Assembly (NCBI GenBank): GCA_963664295.1
Contig: OY760935.1
Span: 992,001 to 1,056,000, forward strand
Reading direction: 5' to 3'
DNA length: 64,000 nucleotides
From: Candidatus Altimarinota bacterium
Lineage (GTDB): Bacteria > Patescibacteriota > Gracilibacteria > CAIRYL01 > GCA-016699755
The notes beneath the pieces are model-generated. The model saw only the letters and a list, made by a program, of their open reading frames with translations, was not told the origin of the DNA and searched no databases. Positions 8,728-29,829 of this stretch are shown piece by piece. The translations under genes were made by a program, and so were the position numbers. Position 1 is the first letter of the stretch; each line of letters opens with the position of its first letter.

Positions 8728-8775
8728 GCTTATTAGCAATTTTAATTCCAAGCTTATTAGCAATTTTAATTCCAA
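8728..8775. repeat. Perfect 24-bp tandem duplication
   Basis: GCTTATTAGCAATTTTAATTCCAA x2 (8728-8751, 8752-8775), overlapping the stop of the upstream SLH gene. Confidence 0.9.
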
Positions 8776-11700
8776 ATTAAGCCATAAATTATTTTTGTAG
8801 CTTGTGCGCGAGTAAGATTATCATTTGGTTTAAACTCTGTGTCTGAAAAACCTTTTACAATACCCAATTCTTTTGCTTTTTCTACCCACGTGATCTGCCA
8901 TGAATCCAAATCTTTAAAGTCTGATTTCTTTTTTGAGCCTTTTAGTCCCTTGATGGTTAGCAGGATTTTTAAAGCTTCAGCGCGGGTAATGTTGTTTTCT
9001 GGTCTTAATGTGCCATCATTATAACCCTTAATGGCATTTTTATTTTTTGCAAATTGTGCATAAGGCGCTAGTTCGTGGTTTGTGGGAATATCTATAAATG
9101 GATTTTGACTTACTGTTGGCAAGGCTTCTTCTCTTAGTGCATCCACGGCCATTTGCAGAAAATCACCACGAGTTATGGCTTTATTAGGATAAAACTTTTT
9201 ATTATCCTTAATAACACCAAATAATTTTAATTTTATTATATATTCTGTTGCCCACTCAGCATCTTTTAGGTCTGAAAATATTTGACTCGTTCCTCTTTTA
9301 ATTGGTGAACTGCCATTTTTTATTTCTTCATTGTCATCATGGCCATCGTTATCAGAGTCTATATTTTCTTCATCTGTACCTAAAAAGTGCTCTTCAATAT
9401 TGCTTAATCCGTCACCATCTAGGTCGTCTTCGCTTGTTGTATAGCCTTCTTCTGCGTTGTTTTCTTCGTTTTGATTATCATTACTGTTATCATTTTCGTT
9501 TTCACTGTTTCCCCCGGTTTTTTGGAGCAAGTCTTCATCAATAGAAACATCCCCAAGCTGATTTACAACAATGCTTTTGCAATAGTCCACCCCATTTTCC
9601 CCATCTTCGCCTTGACCGTTGATACAAAAAATAGTTGGATTTCTTATTTCTACTGTTTCGGAATTAATTTTTGATTTATTTTTAATGATTACGCCGTTGT
9701 TGTTGCCAAAATCAAGAGCCCTTACAGCAAATTGATTATTGTTTTTTGGATCAAAAGACAAAGATATTTTTGAATTATCAGTTAAAAATGGCAACAAATT
9801 GCCCTCTATTTTATATTCATCACCCTCTTCGTCTTCTGTTAATGGCATTTCAAATGGCGGAAAAGATAGATAAACAATGTTTTTTGTTGTTCTTATAAAA
9901 GCAGGTCCAGCAACTTCTTTGCTACCTTTTTTGAGATATATTTCGCTAAATGGTGCTATTTTTAATTTATCTATTGCAAACTCACTTTCAGGATCTCCTT
10001 CTTCAAAATTTAACTCAAGCTCCATTTGCTGTATTGCCAGATTAGAAACAAAGTTTTTAATATTTAAATTAGCAAGCACAAGCTCTTCTTGCTTTTCTTC
10101 TATAATTGCTGTTTTTTCCTCTGTTTCAAGTTTCTGAAAACTAAATTCAAGATATGCACTATCAGAAGGGGCTATTTCAAGGTCAAATCCTTCACTAATT
10201 TTTTCTTCTGGATAAGTTGCCTTAACTCGCAAAGACCCACTTTTTGCGTCTTCTGGAAGAATAGCAGTAATTTTTTTGCCACGACTATCAACATCAGTGA
10301 CTGTTAGCTCGGACTTATTTAGTGTGACAACATTGTGTTTAATATTTGTTGGAAAGTTATAGCCATAAATTTCAACTTTTTTGCCACGCACTTTGCCTTC
10401 TGGGAATAAAACTTTTTTAATCATTGGCGCAGCATAAACCGCGGTAGGATGGTCAGATCCAAAGGGCACCTCTAAAACATTGCTTTTATTTTTACCTCTT
10501 TGGACATAAATTTTAACAACTTTACTTGGTTCTTCGCTAAGCTCTACATCGGTGGAATCTTCTGGTAATAAAAATCCAGCCTCAATTTTTCCACCTGATA
10601 ATTTTACCCCGTCCAAGCCAATATTTTTGTCCAATTTAGCTCCGGAAACACTTAATTTAATGTCGCTAGTGTCGTTGCCAAAACCTGAACCGTATATTGT
10701 AAAAGGTGTGCCTTCATGGAAGCCATATTTGTCTTCTATTTTATAAATTCTTGGCTCCAAATTTTCTTCCAAATCATATTCAAATGGATTGGATTGATAT
10801 TTTTCGTAGGCTGTTATTAAAATTTCACCTTTTGTTTTAATGTCATTTTCAGTGTTAATGCGAATTTTGTTATATACTGTGCTAAATTCGTCTTGGCCAA
10901 TTTTTTTGCCACCTATTTTAATTTCAATATCGTCTTCATTTGTTGGTAAGTTGTTAGCAAAAATATCTAAGATTTTTTCCTGTCTTTTATCGCTTATATA
11001 TTCAATATTTGTTATTTCTACTGGATCTGATTTTTCGTAAACCAAAATATTGCTTTCTGTTTTATCAACCACAACTTTTATTAAAGAAAGTGGAGGTAAG
11101 GGCTTTGGTGCCTCTGCTTCTATGATAATTTTGCCATAATGGTTTTCGTAAATTTGTTCTGGTGTGACAGATTTATTATTAAATTTAACTTTTACTTTTT
11201 TTGTGTCATTAGGAATATTTTCAGCTACAATCTTAAAAAGATCCTTATTATCATCACTCACACCTTTTTCCACAGAAATATTTTGTATTATTGGAGGGAA
11301 AATTTTGGACATTTTTAATTCATTACTTTTTAAGCCATCACGAATAATTTCTATATCTTTTTGGTATTTTAAGCGCGGTAGTTTAAAACTAATTAAATTA
11401 TCAGTTATTTTATAGTTTTTAAGTCCGCTCAGGCTTATTTCGGTGTCAACAAATAGTCCGGAGAAATTTTTGCCATGGATTTCAACCTCCTTACCAGGCA
11501 AAATTCCGTCTTTTCCGTAAACAAAATAAATTTCTGGTGCTGGCACATCAACATAAAAAGGATCACTTTCCACTATTTCTTTTTTGTATTTTATTTCTAC
11601 TCTTATATTGCCGGACTTTGTGTCTTCATCAAGACGCACAGCCATATGATCAAATACAACATATTCAATGTCACTACTAACATTCAGCTCTTTGTTGTCA

Positions 11701-11933
11701 GGACCTGTGACATATACCTTAACTGTTGAGTCGTTGGCAAATTGTTCAAAATTTCTTCCTGTAATAACCATTAAAAAATTTTTTGCCTTTTTGTTTTCTT
11801 GAAAGGTGACATTGTAAATTTCCGGCTTACTTAATAACCCTTCTTCACCGTCTTCCTCTGCTTTTACATAACAGCAGGAAAAAACAAGAACAAAGCTTGT
11901 TAGTAAGGCAATAATTCTTTTTGTGTTAAACAT
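8766..11933 (-). CDS. Surface protein: IPT/TIG-like repeats, Ca-binding DxDxDG repeats, C-terminal SLH domains
   Basis: Signal peptide; repeated 'I.G.NF'/'IYGSGF' IPT motifs; 'DDLDGDGLSNIEE...DSDNDGHDD'; SLH motifs 'GYNDGTLRPENNITRAE', 'FKPNDNLTRAQ'; start 11933 or 11951. Confidence 0.85.
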   Translation of the reverse strand: MFNTKRIIALLTSFVLVFSCCYVKAEEDGEEGLLSKPEIYNVTFQENKKAKNFLMVITGRNFEQFANDSTVKVYVTGPDNKELNVSSDIEYVVFDHMAVRLDEDTKSGNIRVEIKYKKEIVESDPFYVDVPAPEIYFVYGKDGILPGKEVEIHGKNFSGLFVDTEISLSGLKNYKITDNLISFKLPRLKYQKDIEIIRDGLKSNELKMSKIFPPIIQNISVEKGVSDDNKDLFKIVAENIPNDTKKVKVKFNNKSVTPEQIYENHYGKIIIEAEAPKPLPPLSLIKVVVDKTESNILVYEKSDPVEITNIEYISDKRQEKILDIFANNLPTNEDDIEIKIGGKKIGQDEFSTVYNKIRINTENDIKTKGEILITAYEKYQSNPFEYDLEENLEPRIYKIEDKYGFHEGTPFTIYGSGFGNDTSDIKLSVSGAKLDKNIGLDGVKLSGGKIEAGFLLPEDSTDVELSEEPSKVVKIYVQRGKNKSNVLEVPFGSDHPTAVYAAPMIKKVLFPEGKVRGKKVEIYGYNFPTNIKHNVVTLNKSELTVTDVDSRGKKITAILPEDAKSGSLRVKATYPEEKISEGFDLEIAPSDSAYLEFSFQKLETEEKTAIIEEKQEELVLANLNIKNFVSNLAIQQMELELNFEEGDPESEFAIDKLKIAPFSEIYLKKGSKEVAGPAFIRTTKNIVYLSFPPFEMPLTEDEEGDEYKIEGNLLPFLTDNSKISLSFDPKNNNQFAVRALDFGNNNGVIIKNKSKINSETVEIRNPTIFCINGQGEDGENGVDYCKSIVVNQLGDVSIDEDLLQKTGGNSENENDNSNDNQNEENNAEEGYTTSEDDLDGDGLSNIEEHFLGTDEENIDSDNDGHDDNEEIKNGSSPIKRGTSQIFSDLKDAEWATEYIIKLKLFGVIKDNKKFYPNKAITRGDFLQMAVDALREEALPTVSQNPFIDIPTNHELAPYAQFAKNKNAIKGYNDGTLRPENNITRAEALKILLTIKGLKGSKKKSDFKDLDSWQITWVEKAKELGIVKGFSDTEFKPNDNLTRAQATKIIYGLIWN

Positions 11934-12007
11934 ATTTTTTAAATATATCAAGATGTTTATAACAAATTATTGTCTATTTTGCACGAAAAATAAACCTTTA
12001 ATGGAAA

Positions 12008-14286: not shown

Positions 14287-15708
14287 CTAGCTTAATAGTT
14301 TTTTTAGGATTTCATTTACTGCTTTTGGGTTTGCTTGACCCTTGCTTTTTTGCATAACTTTGCCGACTAAGGCTCCCAAAGCTCGATCTTTACCGCCTTT
14401 ATAGTCTTCTGCTATTTGAGCATTTTCACTGATGACTTCTTGGCAGAATTTTTCAATTTCTCCTTGATCAGAGATTTGTACTAAGCCTTTTTCTTCAATG
14501 TATTTTTCAGGATCTAAATTATCACCAGCAATTGTTGGAAAAATTTCCTTAGCAATTTTATTTGATATTTCTCCAGCTTCTACTAAAGCAATAAGTTTAC
14601 CTAAATTTTCCGCAGAAAGTTGGCAATTTGGATTTTCTTTTAATAAAGCCAGATAGTCGCCAATAATCCAGTTTGCTGTTTTTTGTGGGCTTTTTGTAAT
14701 TTTTACAGTTTCTTCAAAAAAATCAGCTAATTGTTTTTCGCTGGTTAAAACCACTGCTTGAGCAAACGGCAAAGCGTGTTCTTCTATAAAACGCAGAGTT
14801 TTTGTTGCTGGTAATTCTGGTAATTCTTTTTTTATTGTTTCCACTTCTTGGTCTGTGGTTTCGATTGGCGGTAGGTCTGGCTCAGGAAAGTAACGATAAT
14901 CTGCGCTTTCTTCTTTTGTTCTTTGGCTTATGCTTTTTTCTTTGTCTGCATCCCAGCCTCTTGTTTCTTGAATTATTTTTTCACCATTTTCTAGTGCCTT
15001 TTTTTGTCTTTTTATTTCATATTCCATTGCTTTTTTTACATTGGCAAAAGAATTCATGTTTTTTATTTCCACCTTTGTGCCAAACTCTTTTGCACCTTTT
15101 TTACGAATTGAAATATTAGCATCACATCTCATCATTCCTTTTTCCATGTCTGCATCAGAAGTGCCTAAATAACGCATTATTTTTTGTAGTTCTTTTAAAA
15201 ACTCAAAAACTTCATCTGGTGAACGAAAATCAGGCTCAGTCACTATTTCCAAAAGAGGAGAGCCGGCTCTATTAAGATCAACAAGTGAAGAATGAGCGCC
15301 TTCATGCATCAATTTGCCAGCGTCATTTTCCAGATGAGCCCTGTTGATACGAAAAGTTTTTTTCTTTTTTTCAATAAGCACATCAACTTCACCTTTTTCT
15401 GCTACAGGTTCGTCAAATTGAGAAATTTGAAAGCCGGAAGGCAAGTCTGGATAAAAATAACTTTTGCGATCAAATTTTGAATATGGAAGAAGTTTACATT
15501 TTAAAGCTAATGCGGTTTTTTGTGCCATTTTTAATGCACTTTGGTTTAATACTGGCAGTGTGCCAGGAAAACCGCTACAAACCGGGCATATTAAAGTGTT
15601 TGCCTCTTTGTTAAAAGTATCATTTGAGCAATTACAAAAAAGCTTGGTTTTGCTTTTTAGTCTAACGTGGATTTCTAGTCCTCCTACCATTTCGTAAGTA
15701 TTTTCCAT
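14287..15708 (-). CDS. gatB: Asp-tRNA(Asn)/Glu-tRNA(Gln) amidotransferase subunit B
   Basis: GLEIH, YFYPDLP, DLNRAGSPLLEIVTEPD, DYRYFPEPDLPP. Confidence 0.98.
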   Translation of the reverse strand: MENTYEMVGGLEIHVRLKSKTKLFCNCSNDTFNKEANTLICPVCSGFPGTLPVLNQSALKMAQKTALALKCKLLPYSKFDRKSYFYPDLPSGFQISQFDEPVAEKGEVDVLIEKKKKTFRINRAHLENDAGKLMHEGAHSSLVDLNRAGSPLLEIVTEPDFRSPDEVFEFLKELQKIMRYLGTSDADMEKGMMRCDANISIRKKGAKEFGTKVEIKNMNSFANVKKAMEYEIKRQKKALENGEKIIQETRGWDADKEKSISQRTKEESADYRYFPEPDLPPIETTDQEVETIKKELPELPATKTLRFIEEHALPFAQAVVLTSEKQLADFFEETVKITKSPQKTANWIIGDYLALLKENPNCQLSAENLGKLIALVEAGEISNKIAKEIFPTIAGDNLDPEKYIEEKGLVQISDQGEIEKFCQEVISENAQIAEDYKGGKDRALGALVGKVMQKSKGQANPKAVNEILKKLLS

Positions 15709-15770
15709 AAAAATAATCCTAAAAAATAACGATACAATTTTTGCACAAAACTATTTTTGTAGCAAAATCT

Positions 15771-16880
15771 TTATTGTTCCATAAGACTTTTTATTTCTGC
15801 GGTAATTGCTTTTTTGAAATTTTCTTCTGAAAATTGTTCAGCATGGGCACTTATTTTTTTGTAATCAAAGTTTTTTTCAATTTCAAAAAAATAAGTCATG
15901 GCATTTAATAGCGAGTCTTCGTTTTGTTCATCAAAAAATACACCTGTTTTTTCAGGAACTACAGACTCTTGCAACCCTGCAGAATTAAAAGCAATAACTG
16001 GCTTTCCGGACGCCATTGCTTCAACAGGAGTAATGCCAAAATCTTCTATCCCCGGAAAAATAAAACCACGACAATTTTGTATGTATTCGGTGACAACAGA
16101 GTCACTTTTTCTTCCTAAAAATTCAATATTTTTTCCAGCAATGTCTTTTAGATAATCTAAGTCATCGCCTGCTCCAATAATAATTAGTTTGTGCTTAGGA
16201 ATTCTATTAAAAGCTTTTATGGCAATGTCTATTTTTTTGTATGGTTGGAGAGCAGAAACTATTAAAAAATAGCCTTCATTTGTTTTTGTGGGTGTAAATC
16301 TTTTTGTGTTTACAGGAGGAAAAATTACATTAGCATCTTTGCGCCAAAATTTATCTATCCTTCTTTGTACTGTTTTTGAGTTAGCGATAATTTTTTCTGC
16401 CCTTGCTGATGCGACAAAATCCCACATTCTTAATTTATGAGCATAATTATAAATCATTGCTTTTTTTAGCCTACCAAATATGCTTTTTTTTGCTTGTTGA
16501 TCTGCTACTTGATGATAATAGTCCCAAACATAACGCATGGGAGAGTGGCAATAACAAAGGTGTTTTGTGTCTGTGTTGGTTAAAATTCCATGCGCAAAAG
16601 CACTAGACGAAGAAATTACTAAGTCGTAATCATTAAAATTAAAACTCTCTATTGCTTTTGGCATTTTTGTGCGCAAAAAAGAGAGAGGAACACCAAACTT
16701 ATAGCTTTCATTTATTTTGGCTGTTTTAACTTTTTCTTTTGGAAAATCCTGTCCGCACTTTTTTTCATCATAAAGCAGAGTGTATATTGGGGCTTTTGGG
16801 AACATTTCACTAAAAATTTTGGCCACTCTTTCAGCGCCACCTAGTTTAATCAAAAGCTCATGTACAATTGCTATTTTCAT
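15771..16880 (-). CDS. Glycosyltransferase family 4 (GT-B)
   Basis: GGAER, YCHSPMRY, EDFGITPVEAMASGKPVIA. Confidence 0.93.
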   Translation of the reverse strand: MKIAIVHELLIKLGGAERVAKIFSEMFPKAPIYTLLYDEKKCGQDFPKEKVKTAKINESYKFGVPLSFLRTKMPKAIESFNFNDYDLVISSSSAFAHGILTNTDTKHLCYCHSPMRYVWDYYHQVADQQAKKSIFGRLKKAMIYNYAHKLRMWDFVASARAEKIIANSKTVQRRIDKFWRKDANVIFPPVNTKRFTPTKTNEGYFLIVSALQPYKKIDIAIKAFNRIPKHKLIIIGAGDDLDYLKDIAGKNIEFLGRKSDSVVTEYIQNCRGFIFPGIEDFGITPVEAMASGKPVIAFNSAGLQESVVPEKTGVFFDEQNEDSLLNAMTYFFEIEKNFDYKKISAHAEQFSEENFKKAITAEIKSLMEQ

Positions 16881-16993
16881 GGACAGTTATAGGTCTTTAA
16901 ATTGTGTCATAAAAACAAAAAAACCAAAAGAATAAAATTTACTTGACAAATATAAAAAAAAAGTAAAAAATAACAATCCTTTAGTATAAGGAC

Positions 16994-19900
16994 ATGAAAA
17001 ATACAGCTAATAAACGACCTGTTGATAGTTGGGAATCAGCTGGTACCCAAAAAAAACAGGAAAATTTGCGCTCTATTGAGGGTGGTATTAGTTCAGAAAT
17101 GGCAACTGCTGAAATAACCGTTGAAAGAGAAAGAGCAAAAACATCATTAGGTGTTGAAAGACAGCTTGCTGTTTTGCCTAGTCTTGTTGAGGATAAGACG
17201 GCGTCATTAACTGATCAGCAAAAAAAATTGGCTCAAAGATATTGTTTTGTGAGTAATAAGGCTCAAGAAAGTGATGAAAAATTAGAACAAGCAGAGGCTC
17301 GACTTTTAGAAGCAGAGCAAAAATTAACAAACAATAGTTTGCCTGCGAAATATCAAAAACAGGTAAAAGCTGAATTAGAAAACGCACAAAGAGCTTATGA
17401 AAAAGCAAAAAAAGCACAAGAAAAAGATAGCGAGAGATTACAAAAATTATTAAACCAAAATGGTTTTACAACATTAGTAAGTGATCTTGATTTAGATAAC
17501 CCAAAAAATAAGCAAGCAATTGCAGGAGAAGTTAATAGGAGTAATGTTCATAAAATTAAAGCAAAAGAGGGCGTATTGTCTGTTGCAATGGGTAAATTAA
17601 GCTTAGCAACATTAACACCGCTTAATGCAGGTGAGATAGCACACGCTATTCGTTATTGCGTACCAAGAGACAAAAGGTCTCGTATGTTAAATAATGTTTA
17701 TTTATATAACTCAAGAGCACTTGCTGTTTGTGAGCTACATGAAGAAATACATGAACTTGATAAAACAATAATTCCTCTTCAAAAAGCAATGGAAGAAGTT
17801 GGGGTTAATGACCCAAAATATGCTGAATATGAAGATCGTTTGGTAAAAGCAAATAAAAAATCAGAAGTGCTCAATGAAAGGCTTCTTAAGTTATTAAAAA
17901 AAGGCGATCGTTTGCACGGTGCTATTTTTTCTGCACTTAAAAAAGTAGGCGTAGAAATTGAGCAAAAAGAAGAAAGCGAGGCTAGCATCAAAGCTAGCCA
18001 ACAAGGAATATTGAATTCATTTAAAGGCCTAGAAACAAAATTGAAAGCAGGAAATGTTTCTGCAAAAAAAATGGAAGCAGACTTGCAACCTATAATGACT
18101 CATTTGTTGTTGTTGCGCGGTGTTACACAAAACGCGAAAGACGGCAAGTTGAACCTAAAAGCAAAAGAACAAAAAGCTTTTGAAATACTTGGTGATAAGT
18201 TGCCTATAATTGAAGATGCGCTTAATAGCATTCTTGATACACTTGAAGAATCGGAACAAGCGCAAAAAACAAAAAAAGGATTTCTTTCGAAAGTTAAAGG
18301 TTTTTTGCGTAAACCTAAAGCAAAAAAAGTGGCAAAAGTGGCAATGTTAACTATGGCTACTCTTTCTGTTAATAGTGGCATCATCACTGATGCGGTATCT
18401 GATTTTTTTAGTGAATTAAACGACTTGGACTTAGGCGATAGTGATTTTGCAAAAGCTTTGCAAAATGCTTTTGCAGGTTTGGCAGATGGTTTAGACAATA
18501 TTGGCGACTCCGCACTTGCTTCAGAAAGTACTACCTTGAGTAGTGGCGTAAAAGCTGAACAAATTAAAGAAGGTGATACGCTGGGGCAAATTGCTGACAA
18601 AATGAGTGTAGATAATTGGCAGAATTTGCAAGTTAGTGAGGACGGAGGTCAAACATGGACTAGTGCTGAAAAAATAAATGAATATGCTATTCAGCCAGGT
18701 TGGTTAGTGGCTACTGATGGCGCTCAGCAAAGTGCGCCAATAATAAGTAATGATTACCAGACCGAAACTGTTAAAAAAGGTGATTACCTTTTTAAGATGT
18801 TAGATAGAATGCCAGGGGCTAATTCTTTAGATGACTTAGAAATTAGCATGAATGGCGGGGTTAGCTGGACAAGATATGGTGATTTTAATAATCCTAATTA
18901 CTTAGAACCAGGCTGGCAAGTAAGGACAGCAACGCAAAACATTTCAACTCAAACAGCTAGCTTTACAGAGACGCACATTGATCCTCCTCAAAACACAGAA
19001 CAAATAGAGGTAGTTGAAAATAGTGGTGAAATTAAATTAAGAGCATCAGCGTCAGTAAAAGAAGCAAACTTGCCACAAGCAAGACCTCAAGCAAAAGAAA
19101 TTATTAGAGCAGATATTGGCACAGCAACAAAAGTAGATTCTGCAACAATTATTGTACCAGGCGAAAATGACGATATACCAGGTCAAATGGAAAGAAGATT
19201 GGATCCTGTAAACATGCCACAAACAGAAAGAACATTTTTTAATGGTAATGTTTTAGTTGGCGGTGGGGTTAGTTATTTTAATGGACAAGTAGGCTCTCAT
19301 GGCGAGGCCTATGCCGGCGGTGATCATTTTGCTATTGGCGCTGAAGCAGGTTATGCAAGTGATAATGCCTATGCAAGCCCTAGCGCTGGTTATTTTTCAG
19401 ATAATTTTGATTTAGCAGTAAAAGCCATGTTTGCTAAAGGCAAATTAAAATCAGCTTTAAGTTTGCCAAATGGTGATCATGTATTTGAAACTGAACACAC
19501 AAAAACAGGTGTTGGGTCTCATTTAGGAGTAAACCTTGGTTCAGGACCAGTTAAGAGAGCAGAAGTTACGCTTGGTTATGAAAAAACATCAAGTGAAGAT
19601 GCTGGAAGTGCATCTTTTAGGGCTGATAATGGAGATTTGTTTAAATATGATGTAAAAGCAGAAGGTGCAACTGAAAAGTTTGGCAAAGTTAATCTTATTA
19701 GCAACCCCTTTCAGCTTGGCGGAGGTTGGACAGCAAATTCTAATGTTGGAGTTTTGCATGAAAGCTTAAACTTTGATGAGCCTACAGGATATAAATTAAC
19801 AGATAATGGTGAAGATTTTACAACTCCTGTTGTAGGAGCTTCTGTTGAAAGTAGTGGAAAAACCCAGTGGAAGTTTGCAGGAGAAATGGGTGCCAATTAT

Positions 19901-21097
19901 TATGAATTATCAGCCGGAGTGCGAGCTAAAGGTTGGCAAGCAGGTGTACAGACCAGACACACAGATATTCAAGACAGCATTAAGGCTAACTTGGGGATTA
20001 ATCTTACTGAAAAAGCTCAACTTAATATTGAAGGTGGAGCAACAAATATAACAGACGATATGGTTATGGAGCCTGATAATTATTATGGTCAAATTGGCGT
20101 AAGCATTCCTTTGGGTGGCTCTAAAGAAAAGTCAGTAAAACCAGTTGTAGCCTCAGCGATAGACAGCTTAAGACAAACAGTTTTTACTCACTTAGGACAT
20201 ATTGATCCAAAGCCAAAAGCGACTATGGCTATTAAAAAAACAGAAAAAGCAAATGAGGGTCCAGGGGTAATGATTATTGGTGCAAACAGAACGGTTCCAG
20301 GAAAAGCAGAAGAGTACATTGCTTCAGCATATGATTATGAGGGAGACAAGATTGTAAGTTATGATTTTAAAATTGTTAGCTCTACAGGTTTTGATGGTGG
20401 CAATATCGCTTATTGGCAACATTTTGTAGGTGAGCCACACAAAGTGAGTCTTAAATTCTCAACTCCTGACTCAGGAAATGGTAGTGCTACATTGCAATGT
20501 GTTGTCACTGATGAATATGGTAATTCAACAACAGAAACACTTTTAATTACAATTTCAGAAGGACAAAATCCAAGAAATCCTAGTAGCAACCCAAATGTTA
20601 ATCCTAAAGACGACACAGACCCAGGAAACCCTGGTAGTGACCCAAATGTTACTCCAAATGATCCAAGCAACACAGGTGATCCTAGTATTCCACCAGTAAC
20701 TCCTGGAGATGGACAAGACACAGAAAATCCTAGCACTCCACCAGTAACTCCTGGAGATGGACAAGACACAGAAAATCCTAGCACTCCACCAGTAGGCCCT
20801 GGAGATGGACAAGACACAGAAAATCCTAGCACTCCACCAGTAGGCCCTGGAGATGGACAAGACACAGAAAATCCTAGCACTCCACCAGTAACTCCTGGAG
20901 ATGGACAAGACACAGAAAATCCTAGCACTCCACCAGTAACTCCTGGAGATGGACAAGATTCAGGTGATCCTAGCACTCCACCAGTAACTCCTGGAGATGG
21001 ACAAGACACAGAAAATCCTAGCACTCCACCAGTAGGCCCTGGAGATCCAAACGATCCAAATCAACCAACTACACCACCATTTACACCTTTTGAATAA
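16994..21097 (+). CDS. Large surface protein: coiled coil, TM, two LysM-like domains, beta-strand-rich barrel-like region, Ig/PKD-like domain, Pro-rich repeats
   Basis: 1367 aa; LysM-like 'IKEGDTLGQIA...IQPGW' and 'VKKGDYLFKM...LEPGW'; amphipathic beta strands ending 'YYGQIGVSIPLG'; 'LQCVVTDEYGNST'. Confidence 0.75.
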   Translation: MKNTANKRPVDSWESAGTQKKQENLRSIEGGISSEMATAEITVERERAKTSLGVERQLAVLPSLVEDKTASLTDQQKKLAQRYCFVSNKAQESDEKLEQAEARLLEAEQKLTNNSLPAKYQKQVKAELENAQRAYEKAKKAQEKDSERLQKLLNQNGFTTLVSDLDLDNPKNKQAIAGEVNRSNVHKIKAKEGVLSVAMGKLSLATLTPLNAGEIAHAIRYCVPRDKRSRMLNNVYLYNSRALAVCELHEEIHELDKTIIPLQKAMEEVGVNDPKYAEYEDRLVKANKKSEVLNERLLKLLKKGDRLHGAIFSALKKVGVEIEQKEESEASIKASQQGILNSFKGLETKLKAGNVSAKKMEADLQPIMTHLLLLRGVTQNAKDGKLNLKAKEQKAFEILGDKLPIIEDALNSILDTLEESEQAQKTKKGFLSKVKGFLRKPKAKKVAKVAMLTMATLSVNSGIITDAVSDFFSELNDLDLGDSDFAKALQNAFAGLADGLDNIGDSALASESTTLSSGVKAEQIKEGDTLGQIADKMSVDNWQNLQVSEDGGQTWTSAEKINEYAIQPGWLVATDGAQQSAPIISNDYQTETVKKGDYLFKMLDRMPGANSLDDLEISMNGGVSWTRYGDFNNPNYLEPGWQVRTATQNISTQTASFTETHIDPPQNTEQIEVVENSGEIKLRASASVKEANLPQARPQAKEIIRADIGTATKVDSATIIVPGENDDIPGQMERRLDPVNMPQTERTFFNGNVLVGGGVSYFNGQVGSHGEAYAGGDHFAIGAEAGYASDNAYASPSAGYFSDNFDLAVKAMFAKGKLKSALSLPNGDHVFETEHTKTGVGSHLGVNLGSGPVKRAEVTLGYEKTSSEDAGSASFRADNGDLFKYDVKAEGATEKFGKVNLISNPFQLGGGWTANSNVGVLHESLNFDEPTGYKLTDNGEDFTTPVVGASVESSGKTQWKFAGEMGANYYELSAGVRAKGWQAGVQTRHTDIQDSIKANLGINLTEKAQLNIEGGATNITDDMVMEPDNYYGQIGVSIPLGGSKEKSVKPVVASAIDSLRQTVFTHLGHIDPKPKATMAIKKTEKANEGPGVMIIGANRTVPGKAEEYIASAYDYEGDKIVSYDFKIVSSTGFDGGNIAYWQHFVGEPHKVSLKFSTPDSGNGSATLQCVVTDEYGNSTTETLLITISEGQNPRNPSSNPNVNPKDDTDPGNPGSDPNVTPNDPSNTGDPSIPPVTPGDGQDTENPSTPPVTPGDGQDTENPSTPPVGPGDGQDTENPSTPPVGPGDGQDTENPSTPPVTPGDGQDTENPSTPPVTPGDGQDSGDPSTPPVTPGDGQDTENPSTPPVGPGDPNDPNQPTTPPFTPFE
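20681..21046 (+). repeat. Coding 48-bp tandem repeat (~7.6 copies; PSTPPV[T/G]PGDGQDTEN)
   Basis: Units start at 20681, 20729, 20777, 20825, 20873, 20921, 20969, 21017. Confidence 0.95.
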
Positions 21098-21199: not shown

Positions 21200-23917
21200 A
21201 TGAAAACAAGCAAATTTTTAGTTAAATTTATAAGCACAGTTAGTGCATTCGCCCTTTTTGCAAGTGTTGCGGTAGCAGATTTTTATCCGCAAACCTCAGG
21301 AACTGTGCATGGAGACGGCATTACTGCTGTTTCTCATCCTTTTGGATTAACCTATCCCTCTTTTAATAATTATACGGATATTAGTACAACTGGTTTTCAG
21401 GACTCTCGCAGGTTTTTATTAGTTGCCAAGGATACCTATGATCTTGATGCATACTCTGATTCAGTTAATGTTGATGTTGGTGATACTCTTTATTTTAAAA
21501 ATTTTCTCCACAACAATGGTGATCCAGATGAAAACAACACTACTGCAAATGATGTAAAAATTAAAGCTCTAGATTTTTATGAAAATGAAGTGGGTCAATT
21601 TGTGACTGAACCTTTTAACACAATGGATGTGACAAGTGAAATTAGTGCTTCAAATACAGTCCCACTTACTATTGGTGATACTGCAACAGTTAATTCTAAT
21701 TCAGGTCCTGTTCGTTTAAGATATTTAGGGCCAATTGTTGCAGGTTGGAATACTTGGGATAGCTTTACTGATGCCAGCTCTCTTTTTGGTAATGGGCTTG
21801 CCTTTGGTGATAGAGATCAAATTGACACTGGCACATTTCGAGGAGGTGCTACAAAGGCAATTATAGTTTATTATTTTGCAAAAGTTGAAAGAGCAGAAGC
21901 TGACTTAAGTATTACTCGTTCGGCTAGCACAAATCGTGCTGCATTAGGCACTACTATAACTTATACATTGGATTATTATAATGATGGTCCTATTGAAGCA
22001 AAAGACACAGTTATTATTGATGATTACGATCAAAGTTTAGTTAGTGTTGACTCTTTGCCAGCTGGCTGTTTAGATGATGGTGATAAAGTCACTTGTCAAA
22101 TTACAGAAGCAGCAAAGAATCAAGCAGGCTCTGTTGAATATACTGTTATTGCTGATGTGGTTGGCACAGCTGATGCAAGTGCAGAAATTAGCTCTAGCAT
22201 TGCGGATCCCGATACCAGTAATAACACTAATAATAGTGGTAGTGTGGAAATTGTAGAGGGAGTAGCAGTTGGCAGTGTGGTTTTTAACGAGATTATGTGG
22301 ATGGGTTCTTCTGTGAACGATAATGACGAATGGATTGAGCTTCGTAATACTACTGATCAAGCAATAGATCTTTCAGGTTTTCAAATTACCAGATATTCAA
22401 GTGGAAATGAAATTGTAATGGTTAACATACCTAATGGAAAAACAATTCCTGCGCATGGTTATTTTTTAGTTGCTAATTACAGCAAAACATCTTCTAATTC
22501 AGCATTAAACGTCACGCCAGACATGGAAGCCCCAGAGGTTTTGCTCGCAAATTCTGACTTACAATTAAAATTGTATGACACATCAAGCAATACACTTGTT
22601 GATATTGCAGATGACGCAAGTGGTACTCCTTTTGCTGGCAATGCAGTTGCAAATGCTTCTATGCATAGAAAATGGAACCCTGGAGACGGATCTGATCCTG
22701 ATAATTGGTTTACATCACAGTTAAGTTATGGTTTGGACAACGGAATTGCTGACCTTGCCACCCCTGGCAATACCTCCTCATCATCTGATTATGCTTTTCC
22801 TGAAACTGTTTATTCAAATGGTAGCACTAATTCTGATTGGATTATTTATGACAATAATCCAGCAGGTGCTACTGCTATTTCTGTTGATGGCGTTATCAAT
22901 TTCACAGGCAACATTATGTATAACGGCACAAGATTGTTGCAGGACTTAGATTCGTGGGAGAATGATGGACAAGAGGTGCTTCAGTTTGATATGAAAACTA
23001 CTCATGGTTATTACATTATCGTAAAAACAGATACCAATCAGGGCGAAAAAACCATTGTTTATGGTCATCAAAATTATGATCGTTTAGACACATTCCCTGA
23101 ACCAAATTATGGACACATTGGTCTTGGATATTTTACAGCTGATGGCAATTGGAGAACTATTGTTAGGGACTTAGAAGAAGATTTAAAATATATTTATGGT
23201 GATAGCATTGAGTTGCGCGAAGTTATTTATTTTTCTGCACGCTCTGAAGATATTTATATTGATAATGTAAAACTTCTTAGAGAATTGCCAGAGTTTGTTT
23301 ATGAGGACGGCTCTGCGGATGCTGTAAATCGTTGGCAGACAAGCAGTGAACCTTCAGTAAATGGAGTAGTGACTGCTGTGACGGTAGATAATATCTCAGA
23401 TGGAGATGGTGACTATGTTCGCCTTGAGGGTAATTATGATCCTAACGATGGCTCACCAGATCGCAACCCTTCTGCTTTGGCAGTATTTAAATTGTTTGCT
23501 AATGACGGCAATGATCCTTGGTACAAAAATCCATATAATAAAATTTTGAGTTGGAAATGGAGATGGAGAGGAGATCCAACTGATTTACCACATAATGATT
23601 TCCGTTTCAGTGCTCTTATTAGGGTAAATAAAGGTGGTGCGCAAACATATAGATATATTGTTTATATGCCACGTAGCACAAGCAATGCTAGTTATATTCA
23701 AAAAGATAAATATTGCTATATTAACATTGGTGCCCGCGAAACAGCTTGGAGTTTAACTGATTTTGATACTATTACTCGCAACTTAGAAGATGACCTTGAA
23801 ACATGTGCAGGCCTTGGCAATGTTAACTTTGGCGCAACAGGCGACATTGATTATCTTGAGTTAATTCGTTTTCAAGTGAACGGAGTTGGTGACATCGATG
23901 ATGTAGTTTTGCAATAA
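21200..23917 (+). CDS. Secreted multidomain protein (DUF11-like Ig domain, lamin-tail domain, beta-sandwich C-terminus)
   Basis: Signal peptide; 'ADLSITRSAS...ITYTLDYYNDGP...DPDTSNN' (DUF11-like); 'VVFNEIMW...DEWIELRN...ATPG' (LTD). Confidence 0.8.
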   Translation: MKTSKFLVKFISTVSAFALFASVAVADFYPQTSGTVHGDGITAVSHPFGLTYPSFNNYTDISTTGFQDSRRFLLVAKDTYDLDAYSDSVNVDVGDTLYFKNFLHNNGDPDENNTTANDVKIKALDFYENEVGQFVTEPFNTMDVTSEISASNTVPLTIGDTATVNSNSGPVRLRYLGPIVAGWNTWDSFTDASSLFGNGLAFGDRDQIDTGTFRGGATKAIIVYYFAKVERAEADLSITRSASTNRAALGTTITYTLDYYNDGPIEAKDTVIIDDYDQSLVSVDSLPAGCLDDGDKVTCQITEAAKNQAGSVEYTVIADVVGTADASAEISSSIADPDTSNNTNNSGSVEIVEGVAVGSVVFNEIMWMGSSVNDNDEWIELRNTTDQAIDLSGFQITRYSSGNEIVMVNIPNGKTIPAHGYFLVANYSKTSSNSALNVTPDMEAPEVLLANSDLQLKLYDTSSNTLVDIADDASGTPFAGNAVANASMHRKWNPGDGSDPDNWFTSQLSYGLDNGIADLATPGNTSSSSDYAFPETVYSNGSTNSDWIIYDNNPAGATAISVDGVINFTGNIMYNGTRLLQDLDSWENDGQEVLQFDMKTTHGYYIIVKTDTNQGEKTIVYGHQNYDRLDTFPEPNYGHIGLGYFTADGNWRTIVRDLEEDLKYIYGDSIELREVIYFSARSEDIYIDNVKLLRELPEFVYEDGSADAVNRWQTSSEPSVNGVVTAVTVDNISDGDGDYVRLEGNYDPNDGSPDRNPSALAVFKLFANDGNDPWYKNPYNKILSWKWRWRGDPTDLPHNDFRFSALIRVNKGGAQTYRYIVYMPRSTSNASYIQKDKYCYINIGARETAWSLTDFDTITRNLEDDLETCAGLGNVNFGATGDIDYLELIRFQVNGVGDIDDVVLQ

Positions 23918-27150: not shown

Positions 27151-29829
27151 TTATTCACTAACAATAATAGTGACAGAAATTTGACCAACTTCATTGCCAT
27201 AAATACCAACACCAAGATTTTGCCAATTTTCTTCTAGTAAAATATTATCACTTTCTTGGTTATTAAGATTAATTTTTATTTCAGAAAAAGAGCTTATTAA
27301 AGAGCTAAATTGTTCAACTTTAAAAATTAAGGCACTGGATTTTGTTTGTATGCCAGCATTTTCCAGCAAGCTCTGTAAAGAGTCACCATCTGATGAGCTA
27401 AAATCAAAAAAATCAGAGTCGCTCATTTTTTTTGACCAACTTTGAGCAATGCTCTGCAGGCTTACATTAGGTATTAAGGGGTTATTGCGAATATCATTTA
27501 CAGTTTTTAAAATTTGATCTCTATAAGAAGCCAAATTGTTGTTATCAAACGGTTCTTCGGAAAAAAGTTCAACAACAATAATTTCCCCGCTTTCTCTTTT
27601 TGCTAAGCCAATGCCAACTTCTTGCCAGTTTTCATTAAGAATGTTGCGTCTGTGAATAGGACTACGCATTAAGCCATTATGAGCAAGGCTAAGGTTTATG
27701 TCCATGGCAATATTTTCAAAAACACCGGTTTTTACTGCATGTTCAACACGATAATCATTTGCGTCTTTGCCATCAGGGTCTGTATGGGCAAAATAATTTC
27801 TTTCTTGCATGTCACTTGCTCTGAATTGAGCTAAGGCATTTAAATTATCATTAAGCTCAACTTTGGTCAGGCCAGCCTTTGCTCGGGAAGAGTTAACCAT
27901 AGATAATAATATTCTTCGATCTGCGCTAAGATTTATGTTTTCAAGAGGATCTTGTGGTTCAGACACACGATAATCTGGTAATAGTGGCACAAATCCTTTT
28001 TGTACAACAGGTGCGTTAATAATTGCAAATCCACCAGTGTCATTGATTTCAATAATATAAGTTCCTACTTCTGTTGGTGCGTAATTAAAAACAAAATCAT
28101 TACCATCAATACTCAGGGGTACGTCAATAATTTTTTCACTAGGCGTTATAATTGTTGCATTTTCTTTGAGGTTTACAGGGCTTGTTCCAGATATTTTTAA
28201 GTTTTGATTTTGAACATAATAAGGAGGCAGGTTGAGGTTGTTTATTTGTTCTTCAACTATTCTTTCATGCTCAATTACAGCATAAAAATCAACACTTACT
28301 GCATCAGAAAATGTTTTATTTTGGCTATTAGAAAGGCTGTTTTCAAGGGGTGCGCCAGCAATTTCTACTGTCATAAAGCCTTCCTGAAAATTCTCAAAAA
28401 TTTCAGTTGGTGTTTGAAATGAGTTTTGATTATTAACAAAAATCTCTATTGTTTCATTTTCTTGTGTAAATCTGAGCCTAAAGAGCTGGTTCCAATCATC
28501 TTCCCAAGAAAAAATTGCTTTGCCATTAATATTTTTAATAACAAAATTAGCAGGTTTACTTTGTGATTGTTCCTCAAAGTTTGGTTCACAAATAGGATCA
28601 TAAACAGTGATAGAGCCTATTTTGCTTTGACCGCTTGTGCCAGGGATCATTGCAATTTCGTGTTCACCAGCTTCATCACTAAAAGTAATTTGCACTTCAA
28701 AACTATTGTTATACACAAGGCCTGAATATGTTTTTTTATCAATAAAAACCGTCACTTCATCAGCTACAACACCCGACCCTAGTTCACCTTTTATGGTATA
28801 AATTTCATTTTTTCTAAATATTTTTGGAATATCATTATCCAAAATTAAGTTATTAAAAAAATCTTTTTCCAATAAATCATTTTCTGTATTTATTTGGCAA
28901 ATTTCTTTGGTTGGTATGCCTGCTGGTGTATCTTCGGGCAATTCTTTGAGTCGCACATTAGCAAGACCACGAGAAAGAGGATAAATTGCCTCAAAAGCTA
29001 TTTCTGAGAGATCAATAATTCTTCCTTCTGCATAGGGCCCTCTATCATTTATTTTAACTATAACAGACTTATTATTGTCTTGATTTGTGACGAGTATTTT
29101 TGTGCCAAAAGGAAAGGTTTGATGAGCAGCGGTATATTTATCTTGATCAAAAACTTCTCCATTGGCTGTATTACGACCTTCGAAAAAATCGGCTAAATAA
29201 CTGGCGCCACCTTCGTCCGGATGATCATTTTCTTTCCATTTTTCTAGCCTATAAAATATTTCCGCAAGCTCTCCTCTGGTCATATCCTTTGCAGGTTGGG
29301 CGTAGTTTGGGTTGTCAAAAAAATTATTATTTTTTGCAAAAGCAAAATAAGACGCAAACCATTCATCAGCACCAATATCTAAATAAGGACTTTTTTCCGG
29401 TTGTTCAAGCTGAATTCCGTTTACAAGAATTAGCATTTTTAATGCTTCAGCACGATTTACTGTGCGGGTTGGCTCAAAATATCCCTCAGCAGTTCCCTTG
29501 ATAACGCCAAGGTTTTTAGCCTTAAAAACATAAGGGCTAAACCACTCATCCCTTGGTACATCTGGAAAAGGTTTGTCCGCAGGAATTCCTTCTGCTTCAA
29601 GTCCAGAGCCAAGAATTAAAATTTTTAATGCCTCAGCACGATTTACTTTTTGATCTGGCTTAAAACTGCCATCAGAAAAGCCGTTCAGCACTCCTTGATC
29701 ACTTAAATAAGTAATTGCAGTAAAGTTTGTGTGCTCTGGGCTAACATCGGTAAAAAATTTAGCACTAACTTGAGCAGGCAAAGTTAGTGAAAATATTATT
29801 CCAAAAATAATTATAATTTTTTTCTTCAT
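27151..29829 (-). CDS. SLH + RlpA-like lytic transglycosylase (DPBB) + CAP domain protein
   Basis: SLH 'GFSDGSFKPDQKVNRAE'; RlpA 'TANGE...TAAH...PFGT...INDRGP...IIDLS'; CAP 'YFAH...ENIA...SPIHRRNIL...VGIG' plus a second degenerate CAP. Confidence 0.88.
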   Translation of the reverse strand: MKKKIIIIFGIIFSLTLPAQVSAKFFTDVSPEHTNFTAITYLSDQGVLNGFSDGSFKPDQKVNRAEALKILILGSGLEAEGIPADKPFPDVPRDEWFSPYVFKAKNLGVIKGTAEGYFEPTRTVNRAEALKMLILVNGIQLEQPEKSPYLDIGADEWFASYFAFAKNNNFFDNPNYAQPAKDMTRGELAEIFYRLEKWKENDHPDEGGASYLADFFEGRNTANGEVFDQDKYTAAHQTFPFGTKILVTNQDNNKSVIVKINDRGPYAEGRIIDLSEIAFEAIYPLSRGLANVRLKELPEDTPAGIPTKEICQINTENDLLEKDFFNNLILDNDIPKIFRKNEIYTIKGELGSGVVADEVTVFIDKKTYSGLVYNNSFEVQITFSDEAGEHEIAMIPGTSGQSKIGSITVYDPICEPNFEEQSQSKPANFVIKNINGKAIFSWEDDWNQLFRLRFTQENETIEIFVNNQNSFQTPTEIFENFQEGFMTVEIAGAPLENSLSNSQNKTFSDAVSVDFYAVIEHERIVEEQINNLNLPPYYVQNQNLKISGTSPVNLKENATIITPSEKIIDVPLSIDGNDFVFNYAPTEVGTYIIEINDTGGFAIINAPVVQKGFVPLLPDYRVSEPQDPLENINLSADRRILLSMVNSSRAKAGLTKVELNDNLNALAQFRASDMQERNYFAHTDPDGKDANDYRVEHAVKTGVFENIAMDINLSLAHNGLMRSPIHRRNILNENWQEVGIGLAKRESGEIIVVELFSEEPFDNNNLASYRDQILKTVNDIRNNPLIPNVSLQSIAQSWSKKMSDSDFFDFSSSDGDSLQSLLENAGIQTKSSALIFKVEQFSSLISSFSEIKINLNNQESDNILLEENWQNLGVGIYGNEVGQISVTIIVSE

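Follow-up and report, generated by a model that had tools for sequence, protein, structure and literature searches.

How a bacterium that is regarded as having one membrane comes to encode what resembles an outer-membrane barrel, and in which bilayer such a barrel might come to lie, is the question raised by one gene in a 64,000-nucleotide stretch of DNA (the window) from a Candidatus Altimarinota bacterium. The window covers positions 992001-1056000 of a genome (G000, assembly GCA_963664295.1) that consists of one contig (OY760935.1) of 1,215,430 bases, is 100% complete and 0.12% contaminated, and is translated according to code 11. Candidate phyla radiation (CPR) bacteria, to which this organism is assigned below, are taken as one-membraned and as drawing host lipids and nutrients by unknown means. 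The gene is an open reading frame (ORF) for a protein of 1367 residues, P0001, with a predicted transmembrane-type beta-barrel placed behind an internal membrane anchor and LysM-like repeats (Table 1). The reading that we favour, at a rough probability of 0.36, is that this membrane- and wall-tethered barrel of outer-membrane type would insert beyond the wall, most likely into the outer membrane of a host or into host-derived lipid at the contact.

The ORF and its order of domains, as described in a first-pass annotation made from the letters of the DNA alone, were confirmed by the ORF call, by short-read contigs and by a homologue. The short-read contigs showed 0 differences over 15500-20718; they may come from the source sample and exclude assembly error only, so that the frame is no assembly artefact as far as the repeats. 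The alternating, glycine- and aromatic-rich beta region noticed in that annotation was likewise borne out (14.7% Gly and 10% aromatic residues, C-terminal end YYGQIGVSIPLGG), with alternation beyond that of shuffled sequences (z 5.9, equalled by 0 of 500 shuffles). Sixteen strands were assigned by hand, and the following counts are therefore hand-fitted and partly circular: none of the 81 outward positions is charged (mean hydrophobicity, KD, of +1.92) as compared to 14 of the 64 inward positions (KD -1.49), each of the seven links at the terminus end of the strands comprises 2-7 residues, and all four links of at least 13 residues (13-34) lie on the opposite side. Aromatic belts are indicated by a residue at the start of 5 of 8 odd strands and at the end of 4 of 8 (6 including His), and Ala, Gly and Ser abound on the outward side of strands 1-4. 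Hence, the general features of a transmembrane barrel, namely an even number of amphipathic strands, a lipid face free of charges, turns that are short where the termini lie and aromatic belts, are found in the sequence. The last strand moreover fits the pattern polar-x-Gly-x-x-hydrophobic-x-hydrophobic, the consensus of the beta-signal.

Two pattern scores were in line with this assignment. A pattern-only hidden Markov model (HMM), trained on 13 barrels of E. coli K-12 with approximate domain bounds, ranked the beta region first among 604 G000 proteins. It obtained 15.5 bits, where the proteins had a mean of -5.8 (sd 5.6) and left-out E. coli barrels reached -2.4 to 14.4 bits; compared with 500 shuffles, its z was 5.9. 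A second score, calculated per strand with hand-set weights, was 5.67 for the beta region, which exceeds the values of all 13 E. coli barrels (4.63-5.39) and places it at rank 2 of 578; the 11 other proteins among the top 12 are polytopic helical membrane proteins. An initial Viterbi barrel model was dropped, as positives (8.9-14.5), negatives (up to 12.8) and the beta region (9.3) were not separated.

The strand faces had been assigned before the homologue was known. When 1.84 billion representatives were scanned in full with HMMER, a single relative was obtained, P0003 (1116 residues, E 2e-7), itself a singleton on a 5.1-kb contig, which aligns with P0001 over the full length at 28% identity. 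Identical residues amount to 88/359 in the inner domain, 26/56 in one LysM, 75/285 in the barrel, 17/46 in the helix-linker, which is thus conserved above the barrel, and 29/90 in the Ig-like domain; the anchor and the overall architecture are retained, without the Pro-rich tail and without LysM-like repeat 2. In P0003, charged residues occupy 3 of the 78 outward and 12 of the 62 inward positions, and the difference in hydrophobicity between the two faces persists when non-identical positions alone are counted (p 2e-6); strands 7, 12 and 13 are slipped in register. Its last strand ends G-F-T-Y-A-F, an aromatic-x-aromatic end of the kind typical for outer-membrane proteins. In a language-model search of the Atlas, the best neighbour of the P0003 beta region was a porin cluster (0.93; Porin_4 on 22% of its members), clusters of the inverse-autotransporter barrel (PF11924, 0.92) made up 19 of 30 matches, further barrel clusters were also among them, and the ten best named matches all fell within one family or clan. 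At rank 2 (0.92) stood a cluster of 56 hypothetical proteins of 360 residues that resembles the barrel and includes one Candidatus Altimarinota record; the class might thus possess a family of stand-alone barrels.

A related strain, approximately 95% identical and detected in one seawater sample with partial coverage of every ORF region, allowed selection to be estimated. Its contigs, of depth 2-5, carry 33 listed differences in the beta region, 18 synonymous and 15 non-synonymous, which corresponds to a pN/pS of 0.23 (p 4e-5), and all six changes on the outward face remain uncharged. The beta region is under purifying selection and is therefore likely functional. Taken together, the pattern, the conservation in the homologue and the language-model neighbours make a transmembrane-type barrel the probable fold of the beta region.

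Table 1. Features of P0001 and of a group of exported proteins; positions refer to the window unless a contig of G000 is named.
Feature	Position	Strand	Basis
Whole ORF P0001, 1367 aa	16994-21097	+	code 11; P0003 homologous over full length, 28% identity
Helical N-terminal domain, aa 1-425, partly coiled coil, presumed cytoplasmic	16994-18268	+	composition, heptad scan
Basic stretch aa 426-445 and hydrophobic aa 446-464, likely internal signal-anchor, N-in/C-out	18269-18385	+	KD19 1.45
LysM-like repeat 1, aa 520-576, containing an Asp-box-like insert	18551-18721	+	PF01476 E 1.9e-5, isolated region
LysM-like repeat 2, aa 589-647; not in P0003	18758-18934	+	similarity to repeat 1
Polar, Pro-containing linker, ~100 aa, aa 648-747	18935-19234	+	composition; P0003 length differs
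Predicted transmembrane-type beta-barrel, ~16 strands (hand count), aa 748-1042	19235-20119	+	pattern, homologue, language-model neighbours
Short helix followed by an extended, conserved linker, aa 1043-1088; might plug the pore or run through it	20120-20257	+	P0003 conservation
Ig-like beta-sandwich, aa 1089-1190	20258-20563	+	Big_9 E 0.057, Big_13 E 0.14, weak
Pro/Gly/Asp/Thr-rich tail, 16-aa repeats, aa 1191-1367; absent from P0003	20564-21094	+	48-bp repeat
Exported proteins with shared C-terminal domain	G000:C1 478332-479357, 743893-746853, 919327-921219, 1102695-1104578		

The remainder of the chain defines how the predicted barrel might be held. The coiled coil of about 440 residues proposed for the N-terminus in the first-pass annotation stood in part: the composition is helical, heptad-rich patches occur near aa 61-150 and aa 241-270, and a coiled-coil Pfam model matches weakly (E 0.0015, aa 68-155), whereas a continuous coiled coil of that length was not supported; the Atlas search with this domain gave no usable match. 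The basic-then-hydrophobic segment expected at about 18325-18385 is present (basic 18269-18328, hydrophobic 18329-18385), though its hydrophobicity is weak. It contains the most hydrophobic 19-mer of the protein, and the matching segment of P0003 (aa 401-419) has a KD of 1.79; with the strongest hydrophobic segment thus placed internally in both proteins, there is no N-terminal signal peptide. Two LysM-like repeats were supported by PF01476 on the isolated region (24.9 bits against a cut-off of 20.9; only E 0.022 with the whole protein) and by their mutual identity of 33% (E 9e-11 for the pair). Both contain an insert that resembles an Asp-box, with the pattern S-x-[DN]-G-G-x-[TS]-W (BNR E 0.0028, isolated region), and this insert is kept in P0003. 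Behind the barrel, the short helix of the helix-linker appears in both of the low-confidence AlphaFold2 models considered below, and an Ig-like sandwich is weakly supported where an Ig/PKD-like domain had been proposed. The Pro-rich repeats at the C-terminus were confirmed as 7.7 copies of a 48-bp unit (20679-21046); the tail varies in length, with 32 bases replacing 368 in a contig of the related strain.

With respect to the organism, the best relatives of the GatB encoded next to the gene are labelled Gracilibacteria, Peregrinibacteria, Peribacteria, Altimarinota or Patescibacteria, which identifies the cell as a CPR bacterium of the class Gracilibacteria. Family searches of the complete genome, run with positive controls, found no match to Omp85/BamA (PF01103), TamB (PF04357), LpxC, secretin or OEP/TolC and neither autotransporter nor OMP_b-brl matches; the first-pass annotation, which had proposed BamA/TamA and lipopolysaccharide (LPS) genes as a check, was thus right in presuming a CPR cell without outer-membrane markers. 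Among 301 genomes of the class, Omp85 was found in one (L122, G118:C69:749-1684). This lone match has an internal stop and lies on a contig of 2.6 kb whose bin is 6% contaminated, and it is probably foreign in origin. Published work likewise describes CPR bacteria without an outer membrane (PMC6744442, PMC12102498, PMC13278184, all in excerpt), and a cytoplasmic membrane with a diffuse outer wall is described for another class (PMC11880426, in excerpt). Ketoacyl synthase or fatty-acid synthase gave no match above cut-off in G000, so that lipid dependence on a host is to be expected, and the bacterium is presumably host-dependent. Mur ligases (4 matches) and Lgt (2 matches) are present. SLH domains gave 46 matches across G000, for example at 8766-11951 and 27151-29829 of the window, and none inside the ORF of P0001. 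The number of SLH matches contrasts with the general loss of these domains reported for the Chloroflexi-CPR clade (bioRxiv 10.1101/2021.05.31.446380, in excerpt). A literature search of titles and the beginnings of abstracts, with most subscription papers outside its reach, returned no description of a transmembrane barrel in CPR bacteria.

The gene is rare. Searched in its class, where the 400 other genomes include 7 of the family, the barrel region was found in 2 of 401 genomes, namely its own and one match (E 0.009) with an internal stop, and in the phylum in 5 of 401, its own and four at E 0.034-0.044, of which three loci encode unrelated proteins and the fourth has internal stops. No relative of the barrel was detected in word-index protein searches (lengths 751-2393, 255-814 and 30-750) or in metagenome contigs, viral contigs, plasmids or phages, and no RNA data set was listed as a holder. 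A profile of the anchor and LysM part matched 3 of 396 genomes: its own, G015 from the same order, and one whose frame is RelA-like and which was judged a chance match. In G015 the ORF (L002:175-3018) displays a long helical N-terminus, a basic-hydrophobic segment and at least three LysM-like repeats before it ends at the contig end; a possible signal-peptidase site lies directly behind the basic-hydrophobic segment. No conserved neighbourhood was seen across 13 relatives' loci beside the neighbouring glycosyltransferase, several of which are cut by contig ends. Given this rarity, a host-contact protein fits better than a core outer-membrane tether.

Following this, we propose that Sec would recognise the internal basic-hydrophobic segment and leave the inner domain in the cytoplasm (N-in/C-out, in accordance with the positive-inside rule), that the LysM repeats would hold the chain on peptidoglycan and that the linker of about 100 residues would extend past the wall. 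The barrel, presumably closed and of approximately 16 strands, would then enter a bilayer outside, without a BamA of the cell's own, with the helix-linker plugging the pore or threading through it as in inverse autotransporters. P0001 would likely serve to fasten the parasite to its host and might also open a solute pore, and the inner domain of 425 residues might couple attachment to the cytoplasm. What favours a host-contact role is that no insertase, LPS, secretin or efflux duct is recognisable, together with the rarity and the fast change of the gene. In the wider form of this proposal, P0001 is a one-chain intercellular rivet into a host outer membrane or into an unseen outer lipid layer of the cell itself, that is, a direct attachment and feeding channel outside the known secretion types, to which we would give somewhat less than an even chance.

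Several points weigh against insertion of a barrel beyond the wall. Regarding the fold, a general background drops P0001 to rank 6 of 604 in the HMM, Ig-rich G000 proteins reach 10-11 bits, equal to the 10.7 bits of P0003, so that barrels and sandwiches are not cleanly separated, and an E. coli Ig passenger window scores z 3.7. The second score is alike for 12-18 strands and does not fix the turn side either. Single-sequence AlphaFold2 models of aa 730-1194 and aa 746-1077 are of low confidence (pLDDT 33.8 and 31.0), and the beta region has no barrel match in Pfam, NCBIfam or PDB. The Atlas matches have 138-166 features in common, fewer than the 170 that matches within one family typically reach, which suggests a distant likeness, and 4-10% of shuffled proteins reach an Atlas score of at least 0.9. 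Regarding the topology, the membrane anchor is only weakly hydrophobic, its KD of 1.45 lying under the cut-off of 1.6 used, and a barrel inserted from outside would sit upside-down with respect to host porins, an arrangement with little known precedent.

Insertion into an unrecognised outer layer of the cell itself, either a lipid patch or a sheath of barrels and protein outside the wall, would place the barrel in normal orientation as an OmpM-like tether with the Ig-like domain and the Pro-rich stalk displayed. The topology then needs no inversion, as LysM, short turns and both barrel termini lie on one side; the strand ends of P0001 and P0003 and the likeness to the 56-member Atlas cluster would be in line with it, and the toga of Thermotoga, a sheath built from trimeric barrels together with patches of lipid, offers a parallel (PMC10160955, in excerpt). 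Thermotoga, however, retains BamA according to the same source, whereas G000 has no match to BamA, TamB, LPS genes, secretin or TolC, the distribution of the gene is patchy, and the published genomics and imaging cited above (PMC6744442, PMC12102498 and PMC11880426) favour a single membrane. A cryptic outer layer thus fits the topology better than a host membrane does and the gene inventory more poorly, and we regard it as less likely.

We give the same weight to a beta region outside any bilayer, in the form of an open or curved meander on a wall-anchored surface protein, be it a lipid-carrying groove of TamB/AsmA type, two soluble lipocalin-like barrels or an S-layer pore. Such a fold would make an insertase unnecessary and would agree with the missing match to any barrel family or structure and with the Ala/Gly/Ser-rich outward faces of strands 1-4; sandwiches and grooves show alternation too, and the SLH matches suggest a protein-rich surface layer. 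On the other hand, the long loops are one-sided, there are two aromatic belts, the strand ends of P0003 are of porin type, the Atlas neighbours all belong to the outer-membrane barrel group and the TamB family is unmatched in G000.

Still less likely, the barrel might loop back from outside into the cytoplasmic membrane of its own cell and act as a gated uptake pore plugged by the helix-linker. This is the sole bilayer that the genome is known to support, the linker is long enough and the helix-linker is the better conserved part, but barrels are normally excluded from energised membranes, a pore of 16 strands would leak ions, the long loops would point into the cytoplasm and there is no known insertase. 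A non-functional relic or a recent import from a two-membraned bacterium, for which the orphan-like distribution and the GC content of 0.384 (average 0.335) might speak, is largely refuted by a third-position GC of 0.208 that agrees with 0.221 ± 0.04 for 711 G000 genes, by the pN/pS, by the N-terminal part up to LysM shared with G015 and by the entire architecture retained in P0003.

Other elements of the locus and genome were recorded. Downstream and in the same direction lies a gene for 905 residues (21200-23917), with matches to DUF11, lamin-tail and epimerase-type beta-sandwich domains and a signal-peptide-like N-terminus, which is also found in the related seawater strain, and an Rfam scan detected tRNAs only. 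At least four exported G000 proteins carry a near-identical C-terminal domain with the end Y-T-A-[LV]-P-[ST]-F (Table 1), which could be a module of donor-strand pilin-like or of surface-anchoring type, as guessed in view of PMC13278184 (in excerpt).

Insertion of P0001 beyond the wall bears on the biology of CPR bacteria in general: with a selected, intact barrel and no BamA, either the model of the envelope would be incomplete or barrels would be deliverable into the membrane of another cell. The isolated barrel, aa 748-1088, would be a direct test object for both questions.

In comparison with known systems, a chain of anchor, LysM, barrel and Ig-like domain with a cytoplasmic domain matches none of the families searched, and by its sequence features P0001 appears to belong to neither type Ve nor OmpM. 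Inverse autotransporters (type Ve: intimin, invasin, FdeC, YeeJ; PF11924) are composed of LysM, barrel, short helix with extended linker and Ig-like passenger (PMC4943183, in excerpt), and P0001 has a like order of domains, with LysM, which is optional in type Ve, ahead of the barrel and matched by PF01476, a helix-linker of matching length conserved in P0003 and a weak Ig match. The inverse-autotransporter-like architecture proposed in the first-pass annotation therefore holds as far as this order is concerned; membership in type Ve does not, given the absence of PF11924 homology, a signal peptide and BAM/TAM and the hand count of about 16 strands. A 10-sequence profile of the inverse autotransporter beta domain, run unfiltered, had no match in the barrel region, HHalign gave a probability of 0.3%, and PF11924 was matched neither in P0001 nor in any of the 401 class genomes, the best P0003 domain scoring -0.4 bits. 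Unlike type Ve, P0001 has approximately 16 strands by hand count instead of 12 (the second score does not distinguish these numbers), an inner domain of 425 residues with an internal anchor in place of an N-terminal cleavable Sec signal peptide, a linker of 100 residues between LysM and barrel, a single Ig domain and no BAM/TAM match in its genome. In OmpM1 of Veillonella parvula, a single chain unites a wall-binding module and a stalk with a porin-like barrel of 16 strands (PMC10628300, in excerpt), and P0001 resembles OmpM of diderm Terrabacteria, reported as lost in CPR (bioRxiv 10.1101/2021.05.31.446380, in excerpt), in coupling a likely wall-binding module to a predicted porin-like barrel. 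It differs from OmpM and SlpA in having LysM and no SLH match and in a barrel that is not C-terminal, with 325 residues after the last strand (about 150 in P0003), and from OmpM in its polar linker instead of a coiled-coil stalk and in the extra membrane anchor and inner domain. General porins (OmpF/OmpC, Porin_4 PF13609) share the 16 strands (hand count), the one-sided short turns and the aromatic belts, whereas in P0001, which has no HMM match to them, the barrel is part of a multidomain membrane-anchored chain in an organism without outer-membrane markers. Lastly, beta-groove lipid bridges of the TamB/AsmA type likewise begin with an inner-membrane anchor, behind which comes a long meander of antiparallel strands that is hydrophobic on one face; P0001 has no PF04357 match, and a barrel is favoured by its aromatic belts and by loops confined to one side.

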